Source: Escherichia coli (GTDB lineage: Bacteria > Pseudomonadota > Gammaproteobacteria > Enterobacterales > Enterobacteriaceae). Taken from it: a stretch of 64,000 nt of DNA. Location: assembly GCF_016903815.1 (NCBI RefSeq), contig NZ_CP069973.1, one strand, 5' to 3'. Made by a program: the position numbers. Position 1 is the first letter of the stretch. Each line of letters begins with the position of its first letter. Shown in pieces: positions 60,401-63,400 of the stretch.

Positions 60401-63400
60401 GTGAAGCTTGTCGAAAAGCTGCTTCTGAGTCAGACGGTCAGCAATAATCGGGAATACATCGCGGTTCACAAAGGCCGGATGGCGCGCCAGCTCGCGGGTT
60501 AATGCGGTTTCCGGCCAGCGTTCGATCTCAGCGGTAATCACGCTTTGTTGAAAAGGCACCGCCGCCGGTTCAGCGTCCAGCCCGACTGGCCAGACAGCAA
60601 TGCCTAACGGTTCGCCTGCCTGGCGCAGCATACGGCCTAACTGCCCGTTACCGAGGACGCAAACCTGTTTCATGCCGCACCTCGCGGGTCTGGGTTTTCC
60701 AGCACTTCGTCAGTCTGGGCTTTGCGCCAGTCATTCAGACGCTGGTGCAGTTCTTTATCATGAGTCGCAAGAATTTGTGCTGCCAGTAACGCCGCGTTTG
60801 CCGCGCCAGCTTTACCAATCGCCAGCGTACCCACCGGAATGCCGCGCGGCATTTGTACGATGGAGTAGAGGCTATCGACACCGCTCAGTGCGGCGCTCTG
60901 TACTGGCACGCCCAGCACTGGCACCAGCGTTTTGGCGGCAATCATGCCTGGCAGGTGCGCTGCGCCGCCTGCGCCCGCAATAATCACCTGATAACCGTTT
61001 TCTTCGGCACTTTCGGCGAAGCTGAACAGTTTATCGGGGGTGCGGTGAGCAGAAACCACTTCAACGTGGTGTGGGACATTCAGGATTTCGAAGATTTCGG
61101 CGGCGAACTGCATGGTAGCCCAGTCGCTTTTGGACCCCATCACGATGGCGACACGCGCCGGATTATTGCGGGAAGACATGCGTCTTAAAACTCCTGTGGT
61201 GCACAACTCTCGGCTTTAGAGGGCACAGAGAATAGCACGGAAAGAGAGCAAGGAAAACGGTTGCGTGGCTGTGAAATCAGCAAAGTTGCGGGTATTTAAA
61301 ACGGAAAATGAATCAGCTCAACGTCATCTGCCGTGACTTTCACCATTGAACCTTCCGTATGCCAGGCACCCAGTACCACGCGAAAAGCAGGTTGCTGATT
61401 GGCGATAAGTTCATGCACCGCCGGGCGATGGGTATGCCCGTGGATCAGCCATTGCACCTGATGTTTTTCCATCGCACTGACCACCGCGTTTTGGTTAACG
61501 TCCATGATCGCCAGCGATTTACTGCTGTTGGCTTCTTTGCTGTTCGCGCGCATTCGCGCGGCAATGCGTTTGCGCACAAACAATGGCAGAGCGAGGAATA
61601 GCGTCTGCAGCCAGGGTTTGTGGACTTTGGCGCGAAAAGCCTGATAACCGGCGTCATCGGTGCACAGCGTGTCGCCATGCATAATCAATACCCGGCGACC
61701 ATACAGTTCGAGCACCTTTTCTTCCGGCAATAACGTCATGCCGCTTTCACGGGCAAAGCGTTTGCCGAGCAGAAAATCACGGTTGCCATGAATGAAATAA
61801 CAGGGAACACCGGAATCGGACACCGCTTTGATCGCTGCCGCCATCTGGCGATGGAGTGGGTTGGGATCGTCGTCGCCAATCCACGCTTCAAACAGATCGC
61901 CAAGAATATACAGCGCGTCGGCCTTGCGGGCTTCCCCCGCTAAAAAACGCAGAAAACCGGCGGTGATCGCCGGTTCTTCCGCGCAGAGATGAAGATCTGC
62001 AATAAAGAGTGTCGCCACGATTACTCGCTAACGGTCACGCTTTCAATGATAACGTCTTCTTTTGGCACGTCCTGGTGCATACCGCTACGACCGGTTGCAA
62101 CACCTTTGATTTTGTCTACCACGTCCATGCCTTCAACCACTTCAGCAAACACGCAGTAACCCCAACCTTGCAGGCTTTCGCCAGAGAAGTTCAGGAAGTC
62201 GTTATCAACCACGTTGATGAAGAACTGTGCAGTTGCAGAGTGCGGTGCCTGAGTACGGGCCATTGCCAGCGTACCACGGGTATTTTTCAGACCGTTGTTG
62301 GCTTCGTTTTTGATCGGGTCTTTGGTGGTTTTTTGCTTCATGCCCGGCTCAAAACCGCCGCCCTGAATCATAAAGCCGTTGATTACACGGTGGAAAATGG
62401 TGTTGTTGTAAAAACCTTCGCGGCAGTAGTCCAGGAAGTTTTTAACTGTTTCAGGTGCTTTATCGTCAAAAGTTTTGATGACAATATCGCCGTGATTGGT
62501 GTGGAAAGTAACCATTTTTGCATCCTGTTCCGTTTGATTGGTGCTTCAACCCGGTTCGGGTCATATATAGGGTGGTGTTATAGCATAACCGCACGATCGG
62601 ATCATCACGCAATGTATGCTGATTCGCGCGGGAAATATGGGTATTATACGCAACTCAATTACCCACACATGTCTAAACGGAATCTTCGATGCTAAAAATC
62701 TTCAATACTCTGACACGCCAAAAAGAGGAATTTAAGCCTATTCACGCCGGGGAAGTCGGCATGTACGTGTGTGGAATCACCGTTTACGATCTCTGTCATA
62801 TCGGTCACGGGCGTACCTTTGTTGCTTTTGACGTGGTTGCGCGCTATCTGCGTTTCCTCGGCTATAAGCTGAAGTATGTGCGCAACATTACTGATATCGA
62901 CGACAAAATCATCAAACGCGCCAATGAAAATGGCGAAAGCTTTGTGGCGCTGGTGGATCGCATGATCGCCGAAATGCACAAAGATTTTGATGCTTTGAAC
63001 ATTCTGCGCCCGGATATGGAGCCGCGCGCGACGCATCATATCGCAGAAATTATTGAACTCACTGAACAACTGATCGCCAAAGGTCACGCTTATGTGGCGG
63101 ACAACGGCGACGTGATGTTTGACGTACCGACCGATCCGACATATGGCGTGCTGTCGCGTCAGGATCTCGACCAGCTGCAGGCAGGCGCGCGCGTTGACGT
63201 GGTCGACGACAAACGCAACCCGATGGATTTCGTTCTGTGGAAGATGTCGAAAGAGGGCGAACCGAGCTGGCCGTCGCCGTGGGGCGCGGGCCGTCCAGGC
63301 TGGCACATTGAATGTTCGGCAATGAACTGCAAGCAGCTGGGTAACCACTTTGATATCCACGGCGGCGGTTCAGACCTGATGTTTCCGCACCACGAGAACG

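Follow-up and report, generated by a model that had tools for sequence, protein, structure and literature searches.

The PUR box between lpxH and purE in Escherichia coli is almost certainly the known purEK operator

In the E. coli DNA examined here, a stretch of 64 kb (the window), the spacer between lpxH and purE contains a 16-bp sequence resembling an operator of the repressor PurR. This raises the question of whether the sequence is the site through which purEK is repressed, and how a repressor bound there would act on transcription. The combined evidence indicates that the sequence at 61251-61266 is almost certainly the purEK operator (PUR box) of E. coli, with repression probably occurring by corepressor-dependent promoter occlusion.

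The genes around the site were assigned by NCBIfam equivalog matches and lie on the minus strand. The operon starts with purE (N5-CAIR mutase, 60670-61179, 220 bits), followed by purK (N5-CAIR synthase, 59606-60673, 673 bits), with a 4-nt overlap between purK and the purE stop, so that the two genes are co-transcribed. Upstream, on the same strand, lies lpxH (61296-62018, 390 bits), which is outside the PurR regulon and delimits the control region on that side; ppiB was identified in the same way (370 bits). The spacer at 61180-61295 spans exactly the 116 bp from the lpxH stop codon (61296-61298, minus strand) to the purE ATG (61179-61177). An in-frame TTG at 61206, given as the purE start in an ORF listing, was rejected, the true start being the ATG at 61179. 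From the box to this ATG the source strain is base-for-base identical to MG1655. The differences, a 1-bp deletion and one substitution, adjoin the lpxH stop and lie upstream of the box. The purE region of the window was found in 5425 of 5426 complete E. coli genomes. The cognate purR gene lies outside the 64-kb window and is present in 5424 of the 5426, which establishes it at species level and does not prove it for the source genome itself.

The first-pass annotation had read positions 61251-61266 as the reverse complement of a near-consensus PurR operator, and the sequence bears this out. The plus strand reads aggaaaacggttgcgt, and its reverse complement ACGCAACCGTTTTCCT runs in the direction of purE, on the minus strand. 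It is a 16-bp imperfect palindrome with CG at its centre, as expected of a PUR box (consensus ACGCAAACGTTTGCGT or purF-type ACGCAAACGTTTTCTT), and it agrees with the purF-type box at 14 of 16 positions. With at most two mismatches to ACGCAAACGTTTTCTT, the box is the sole match in the 64-kb window, and shuffled sequences gave an expectation of 0.04. With at most three mismatches to the consensus, 0.78 matches per 64-kb window are expected by chance, so the looser threshold alone is not significant.

A position weight matrix (PWM) gave a sharper measure. It was built in leave-one-out fashion from 27 other ChIP-supported PurR motifs, excluding the purE site. The box scored 20.0 bits, within the 12-25 bits covered by the 27 training sites, and the next-best locus in the window reached 10.5 bits. 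The number of matches of at least 20 bits expected on both strands of 64 kb was 0.012 by exact calculation for independent positions, 0.005 from 200 shuffles and 0.023 from 300 first-order Markov simulations. Scaled to the 116-bp lpxH-purE spacer alone, the expectation is about 2e-5. The runner-up of 10.5 bits compares with a mean maximum of 15.5 bits in simulated random sequence, and both plain shuffles and exact convolution agree that the window is slightly poorer in mid-scoring matches than random sequence. The idea that the C at box position 7 is unique among PurR sites was rejected, since by palindromic symmetry the AACCG half-site also occurs in the purB, guaB and purL sites. As a side observation, a candidate PurR 16-mer, GGTAAAACGATTGCGC, was seen at codons 8-13 of folD.

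The operator is already known: it has been characterised since 1989-1990, was confirmed by a genome-wide study in 2011 and was revisited by EMSA in 2026. The classical characterisation and footprint are said to stem from work of Tiedeman and of Watanabe in 1989 and of He in 1990, and in the work of He repression of purE-purK reportedly amounted to 5-17-fold. The PurR motif listed for purE-purK from ChIP-chip in MG1655 is AGGAAAACGGTTGCGT, at U00096.2 552395-552410 (Cho et al., 2011, Table 1). It lies 72-87 nt upstream of the MG1655 purE ATG (552323), and both sequence and offset are the same as those of 61251-61266 relative to 61179 in the window. A comparison with the characterised operator, proposed in the first-pass annotation, thus places the site nowhere else. 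In the same study the ChIP-chip region 552127-552626 showed a log2 enrichment of tagged PurR of 2.08 with adenine and 0.86 without, and purEK was listed with the IMP-pathway genes that PurR-hypoxanthine represses (Cho et al., 2011).

The EMSA data come from an ExPEC strain (2026), where PurR shifted the purE promoter, guanine or hypoxanthine strengthened binding, and a PurR mutant in the ligand pocket did not show this enhancement. The probe was the unmutated purE promoter fragment, not the isolated 16-mer. Medium free of purines derepressed purE and purK in that strain, and guanine or hypoxanthine repressed them. By analogy with the identical MG1655 sequence and the ExPEC promoter, for which this is published, PurR binding at the box in the window would be enhanced by hypoxanthine or guanine. 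Repression of purEK by purines would likewise be expected to depend on purR, as in the literature on other E. coli strains. The texts of Mendoza-Vargas 2009 and of the RegulonDB evidence paper mention PurR and hold no usable detail on purE.

How binding would affect transcription depends on where the purE promoter lies. Being the only intergenic space is in itself no proof of where a promoter lies; that proof is supplied by a transcription start site (TSS) and a conserved extended -10 element. Kim et al. (2012, PLoS Genet, PMC3415461, supplementary file 2) place the TSS 42 nt ahead of the ATG; it is a C at 61221 on the minus strand, equivalent to 552365 in MG1655 (U00096.2, minus strand). The upstream sequence of 51 nt given in that supplement is the same as that of the window. 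The assignment is based on a single genome-wide dataset (32 reads) together with the conserved -10. From the TSS and conservation, the extended -10 is TGcTATTCT at 61229-61237 (minus strand), with TG at -16/-15 and TATTCT at -13 to -8. A weak -35-like hexamer, TTTTCC, is located at 61252-61257 (minus strand; -36 to -31), matching TTGACA at 3 of 6 positions and separated from the -10 by a 17-nt spacer. From its position relative to the TSS and its sequence, it probably serves as the -35. With TGn and a -10 at the correct distance from the TSS and a weak -35, the region has the features of a predicted extended -10 sigma-70 promoter. The first-pass placement of the purEK promoter in the lpxH-purE spacer, together with the box, is thereby upheld.

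A generic scan of 60900-61700 found no sigma-70 promoter. It missed the purE promoter because it demands at least 4/6 in both hexamers, and the -35 has only 3/6; we therefore rejected the scan result as evidence against an extended -10 promoter of this kind. The transcript starts with a 42-nt leader (61180-61221, minus strand) that carries the Shine-Dalgarno sequence AGGAG at 61191-61195. Control at the RNA level through this leader was considered and rejected: no Rfam family was found in the window's leader, and its fold had a z of 0.61 against shuffles. Rfam likewise gave no family for the longer leaders of Dickeya, Brenneria, Serratia, Yersinia, Xenorhabdus and Plesiomonas. The window's leader has just one inverted repeat, a 9-nt GTGCAC palindrome.

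Relative to these landmarks, the box occupies -87 to -72 from the purE ATG and -45 to -30 from the TSS (centre -37.5), which puts it in the promoter of a purine transcription unit. TTTTCC lies wholly within the promoter-proximal half of the box. PurR sites are stated in general to lie between -35 and -10 (Cho et al., 2011); unlike this generalisation, the purE box overlaps the -35 and reaches upstream of it. When purines are abundant, dimeric PurR, a LacI/GalR-family protein, would bind the PUR box together with hypoxanthine or guanine. The bound repressor would occupy DNA that RNA polymerase needs upstream of the -10, and initiation of purE-purK would be blocked. This block is suggested because the box at -45 to -30 contains the weak -35 of the extended -10 promoter, and steric exclusion of RNA polymerase is the probable mechanism. 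When purine pools fall, PurR would lose its corepressor and depart, and the purE promoter would fire.

Conservation of the site was followed in purE loci chosen by the purE coding pattern, independently of the box. Among Enterobacterales, 55 of the 55 loci that had sufficient upstream DNA, from 33 genera, carried NCGCAANCGTTTTCCT upstream of purE and oriented alike. A profile of 32 genera anchored on the box showed 90-100% identity for the box and the extended -10, which kept a fixed, ungapped distance, and just 30-50% for the upstream flank and the spacer from -26 to -19, as expected of a phylogenetic footprint. In these genera T-16, G-15, T-13, A-12, T-11 and T-8 were each at least 90% conserved, as were C-1, C+1 and T+2 around the start site, and the 'cacaggag' before the purE ATG was also kept across genera. 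Within the box, the promoter-proximal half (TTTTCCT) was invariant in all 56 Enterobacterales instances and the distal half (ACGCAA) was 80-100% conserved, the only variable positions being 1 and 7, both distal. The footprint extends to Pasteurellales, where 11 of 12 loci had a box scoring 15.7-19 bits. In streptococci, 39 purE loci had at least 250 nt upstream; all of these lacked the enterobacterial box, with PWM scores mostly at or below 9 bits.

Upstream of the box the DNA is changeable. Same-strand adjacency of lpxH and purE is conserved across Enterobacterales, and some lineages carry inserts of 0.3-3.5 kb between the two genes and still keep the box. In 1026 E. coli genomes (19%), the DNA upstream of the box is swapped for an unrelated, ORF-bearing segment between lpxH and purE, and homology restarts at box base 1. 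Insertions and deletions in E. coli and in other genera always break exactly at this first base. On the upstream side, conserved DNA thus ends at the box, even in the E. coli genomes with the extra ORF.

Several other readings of the site were weighed against promoter occlusion. PurR could mainly form a roadblock or insulator against read-through from ppiB-lpxH. The generic scan of 60900-61700 found no terminator-like site between lpxH and purE, the box begins only 29 nt past the lpxH stop codon, the adjacency of the two genes is kept across Enterobacterales, and PurR is well known to repress as a roadblock at purB and purR. As the main function of the box this is nevertheless very unlikely: purE has its own TSS and a conserved extended -10, with the TSS 30 nt past the box and the spacing invariant, an arrangement typical of promoter occlusion, and the box is equally conserved in Pasteurellales, which lack the lpxH neighbour, and in the lineages with inserts. 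A roadblock could be a secondary role. Because there is no terminator between lpxH and purE, PurR might occlude its target promoter and double as a purine-dependent roadblock that insulates purEK from the constitutive, essential ppiB-lpxH transcript, a combination that we regard as possible, though rather doubtful. If it were true, the control region would have the box as its fixed boundary on the upstream side, and this would fit the indel breaks at the first base of the box.

The invariant TTTTCCT half, which holds the -35-like hexamer, and the confinement of variation to distal positions 1 and 7 would also suit a 16-mer conserved merely as a promoter element (-35 or UP-like), with PurR binding incidental or absent. 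We consider this extremely improbable. The distal ACGCAA, upstream of any -35, is conserved as well, the whole 16-mer fits a matrix derived from unrelated operons, and PurR gives an adenine-dependent ChIP-chip signal in vivo and ligand-enhanced binding in EMSA. Moreover, TTTTCC is a poor -35 with just 3/6 matches, so promoter function alone would not explain the strict conservation. Control chiefly by another LacI/GalR-family paralogue, such as RbsR, has as little to recommend it. Operators of this family share the central CG and a AANCGNTT core, sequence alone cannot fully discriminate among them, and RbsR has been reported to touch purine genes. Against this, the ChIP used tagged PurR and its signal responded to adenine, purified PurR shifts the fragment and does so more strongly with guanine or hypoxanthine, and in each clade examined the site is found together with purine-pathway genes. 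Chance resemblance without function, which the 0.78 matches at the three-mismatch threshold might suggest, is effectively refuted: the box has two mismatches (0.04 expected) and 20 bits (about 0.01 expected), lies in the predicted 116-bp spacer, is conserved in 33 genera and has been bound experimentally. The analysis found no evidence contradicting the reading as a PurR operator that occludes the purE promoter.

Comparison with known systems places this PurR operator precisely. It is the same element as the E. coli K-12 purEK operator, with 16-mer, ATG offset, promoter and leader all identical. The purF operator (cvpA-purF) belongs to a different operon and responds to the same repressor and corepressors. 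It shares the 14 positions and the same asymmetric layout of a near-perfect half (ACGCAAAC) and a T-rich half (GTTTTCNT), and the purE box differs from it in having C instead of A at position 7 and C instead of T at position 15. The purF operator is reportedly the one in the reference PurR-hypoxanthine-DNA complex that Schumacher and colleagues described in 1994. The intragenic, roadblock-type operators of purB and purR share the repressor and the 16-bp motif family, but are situated within coding sequence or past the TSS, where they stop elongation, whereas the purE box at -45 to -30 is positioned against initiation.

In H. influenzae, the PurR site of purE-purK (HI1615) is AGGCAAACGTTTGCTA at -75 (Sinha, 2013, after Ravcheev, 2002), and the Haemophilus box found here matches this site. 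The Pasteurellaceae site is an orthologous operator; the operon that it precedes is orthologous too, and the distance to the ATG is similar. It differs from the site of E. coli in being a more symmetric palindrome (GCAAACGTTTGC core) with neither an lpxH neighbour nor an embedded TTTTCC. The PurR/PurBox system of Firmicutes (Bacillus, Streptococcus, Staphylococcus) has no more in common with it than the name and a role in repressing pur genes in response to purines; its PurR is an unrelated PRPP-sensing repressor of PRT fold and its DNA motif is unrelated too.

The first-pass view of the box as ordinary housekeeping regulation was right: this is a textbook operator, and its rediscovery has no discovery value. 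Its practical use is that of a positive control, since a reading from sequence alone gave a real 16-bp site with exact coordinates and the right orientation. The comparative gain is a clean description of a module of PUR box and extended -10 whose spacing does not vary in about 33 genera of enterobacteria.

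The PUR box at 61251-61266 (aggaaaacggttgcgt on the plus strand, ACGCAACCGTTTTCCT in the direction of purE transcription) is the textbook PurR operator of purEK and is already known. Gene calls, taken from an ORF listing and confirmed by NCBIfam equivalog models and the MG1655 annotation, place ppiB (62021-62515), lpxH (61296-62018), purE (60670-61179) and purK (59606-60673) all on the minus strand, with a spacer of exactly 116 bp (61180-61295) from the end of lpxH to the purE ATG. The longest purE ORF (178 aa) begins at an in-frame TTG at 61206 that lacks a Shine-Dalgarno sequence and falls within the mapped 5' leader. 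The real start is therefore the annotated ATG at 61179 (169 aa), which is preceded by AGGAG (61191-61195). The window is E. coli DNA: of 5426 complete E. coli genomes, 5425 matched a 701-bp query across the box, several clinical isolates at 100%, and 5424 have purR, which lies outside the window.

The first-pass annotation, made from sequence alone, had read the box as the reverse complement of a near-consensus PurR operator and had proposed comparison with the characterised purEK operator (the CHARACTERISED site). This reading is accurate to the base. The box has two mismatches to the classical purF-type box ACGCAAACGTTTTCTT and is the only such match on both strands of the 64 kb, where 0.04 are expected. 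The stringency of the consensus search matters, since allowing three mismatches raises the expectation to 0.78. An independent test used a weight matrix built on the PurR ChIP-chip table of Cho et al. (2011), with all of its 27 motif instances except the purE site. On this matrix the purE site scored 20.0 bits and the runner-up locus in the window 10.5 bits. Matches of at least 20 bits are expected per window at 0.012 (exact iid convolution), 0.005 (200 shuffles) or 0.023 (300 Markov simulations), and at about 2e-5 in the 116-bp spacer alone, where the purE operator was predicted.

The published site has the same sequence and the same position, and so does not map elsewhere, the outcome that would have refuted the first-pass reading. 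In Table 1 of Cho et al. (2011; PMC3159470), the PurR-bound region for purE-purK is 552127-552626, with a log2 enrichment of 2.08 with adenine and 0.86 without, and the motif is AGGAAAACGGTTGCGT at 552395-552410. MG1655 purE spans 551814-552323 (U00096.2), which puts the motif 72-87 nt before the ATG, the same offset as that of 61251-61266 from 61179. Alignment of the window with MG1655 showed zero differences from the box to past the ATG; the two sequences differ only next to the lpxH stop, by one substitution and a 1-bp deletion, and at one base within lpxH. In a 2026 study of an ExPEC strain (PMC12858057), purified PurR shifted a purE promoter fragment, guanine or hypoxanthine enhanced the binding, and the enhancement was lost in a ligand-pocket mutant. 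Medium free of purines derepressed purE and purK in the same strain, and guanine or hypoxanthine repressed them. The element serves ordinary purEK regulation by PurR, as had been proposed.

The promoter geometry could be derived from the purE transcription start site (TSS) of Kim et al. (2012; PMC3415461, supplementary file 2), which 32 reads place at 552365 on the minus strand, with a leader of 42 nt. The 51-mer that this study gives upstream of it, CAGCCACGCAACCGTTTTCCTTGCTCTCTTTCCGTGCTATTCTCTGTGCCC, is identical in the window and sets the TSS at 61221, within the lpxH-purE space to which the promoter had been assigned. Published experiments on identical sequence have established PurR binding, its ligand dependence, repression and the TSS. 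Relative to the TSS, the box occupies -45 to -30 (centre -37.5). A -35-like TTTTCC (61252-61257, -36 to -31; 3/6, 17-nt spacer) lies entirely within it, and an extended -10 element, TGcTATTCT, is found at 61229-61237 (-16 to -8). A generic sigma-70 scan requiring at least 4/6 in both hexamers returned no promoter at purE because its -35 is weak. The arrangement agrees with the way in which pur-regulon operators are generally described, as overlapping their promoters (Cho et al., 2011). The start region (61219-61226) has a G+C-rich discriminator, GTGCCC followed by T, that is conserved in 32 genera. Such discriminators are typical of promoters under negative ppGpp/DksA control. Overlap of pur-regulon operators with promoters was reportedly also described by He et al. 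(1990). RNA-level control through the leader is unlikely, since no Rfam family was found in the purE leader of the window or in longer orthologous leaders and the leader fold was no better than that of shuffles (z = 0.61).

For phylogenetic footprinting, one genome per species was scanned with a degenerate pattern encoding PurE residues, which avoided selection on the box and gave 120 loci. In Enterobacterales, NCGCAANCGTTTTCCT precedes purE, in the same orientation, in all 55 loci with at least 250 nt of upstream DNA. These span 33 genera, among them Escherichia, Xenorhabdus, Dickeya, Edwardsiella and Plesiomonas; two further loci without the box were truncated. A more symmetric box (15.7-19 bits) occurred in 11 of 12 Pasteurellales loci; its Haemophilus version is the one that Sinha et al. 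(2013) list for purE-purK. None of the 39 Streptococcus loci with enough upstream DNA had the box; the Streptococcus PurR is a protein unrelated to the enterobacterial one. Four gammaproteobacterial purE loci, from Cricetibacter, Gilliamella, a member of the Cellvibrionaceae and a Gammaproteobacteria MAG, differ from those of their relatives: the 400 nt upstream contain no PUR box (best 2-4 bits). In these, PurR control may have been lost or relocated, or purE may not be first in its operon.

A box-anchored, ungapped profile of 32 genera showed 90-100% identity in the box, except at positions 1 (80%) and 7 (70%), and 30-50% both in the 30 nt upstream and in the spacer from -26 to -19. Identity was again at least 90% at C-18, T-16, G-15, T-13, A-12, T-11 and T-8 and, in the start region (alignment columns 69-77), at C-1, C+1 and T+2. 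Because the box and the extended -10 are conserved ungapped while flanks and spacer diverge, operator and promoter form a single conserved module of fixed spacing. The distance from this module to the ATG varies, with leaders of 42 to about 130 nt. It is 42 nt in E. coli and about 100-130 nt in Dickeya, Brenneria, Xenorhabdus, Serratia and Yersinia, which implies that leaders there are much longer; they had no Rfam match.

The upstream side of the module is variable even within E. coli. In 1026 of 5426 complete genomes, a segment of about 420 bp with a 109-aa ORF separates lpxH from purE, and homology to the window restarts exactly at box base 1, with substitutions at -29 and -26. This natural swap experiment points the same way as the conserved operator-promoter module. 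The breakpoint corresponds to 61267-61295, directly upstream of the box. The ORF (L124:4061-4390 in a compared purE locus; NZ_CP032201.1 4551560-4551889) encodes the very hydrophobic 'hypothetical protein' WP_001188440.1, which had no Pfam match. The segment is also carried by E. albertii (L009:4396-4722 in its purE locus) and is absent from the window and K-12; in other genera this position holds unrelated inserts of 0.3-3.5 kb. Throughout Enterobacterales, lpxH is the same-strand upstream neighbour of purE, with spacers of about 112-3550 bp, which is not the case in Pasteurellales. The box is kept whatever the lpxH neighbourhood or spacing and therefore belongs to purE rather than to lpxH.

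Chance resemblance is excluded by the match statistics, the published PurR site, the promoter geometry and the phylogenetic footprint taken together. Conservation of the box purely as a promoter element does not explain the data either: it would leave unaccounted for the conserved distal half-site, the match to a matrix derived from unrelated operons, and the ChIP and EMSA results. The ChIP was specific for PurR and the EMSA with purified PurR responded to ligand, both of which contradict a different LacI-family paralogue as the main binder. A further proposal is that PurR at the box acts as a roadblock or insulator against read-through from lpxH. No intrinsic-terminator-like structure was found from lpxH to purE, and the operator begins just 29 nt after the lpxH stop (61267-61298 with the stop codon), so that ppiB-lpxH transcripts may read into purEK unless blocked; PurR does act as a roadblock at purB and purR. 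As the primary explanation this is ruled out by the conserved promoter spacing and by persistence of the box where lpxH is absent or distant; as a secondary role it has a modest probability.

A second PurR-like 16-mer, GGTAAAACGATTGCGC (15.3 bits), coincides with folD codons 8-13, about 4.5 kb away from the purE box and just past the window end at 64000 (L098:3806-3821 in an E. coli locus). It is identical from E. coli to Dickeya, Serratia and Erwinia (11 further loci). Third-codon conservation is 92-100% in codons 8-14 and 38-62% in codons 15-30, and is elevated in codons 1-7 too. No folD peak is among the PurR ChIP-chip regions of Cho et al. (2011), but for H. influenzae PurR is predicted to target folD at -45 (Sinha et al., 2013). 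The 16-mer may be an intragenic operator like that of purB, or merely reflect constraint on the translation-initiation region. Elsewhere in the window, two matches unrelated to the PUR box passed the Rfam gathering threshold: the enterobacterial sRNA STnc480 (51309-51375, plus strand, 84.9 bits) and the nucleoid-associated RNA naRNA4/CssrE (22912-22989, minus strand, 71.9 bits).

For purEK, corepressor-dependent promoter occlusion is the best-supported mechanism. PurR-hypoxanthine or PurR-guanine binds the box, which spans -45 to -30, and would thereby deny RNA polymerase access to the -35 and upstream region of the extended -10 promoter. The geometry and its conservation are observed here; repression probably proceeds by steric exclusion of the polymerase. 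On purine depletion, PurR is released.
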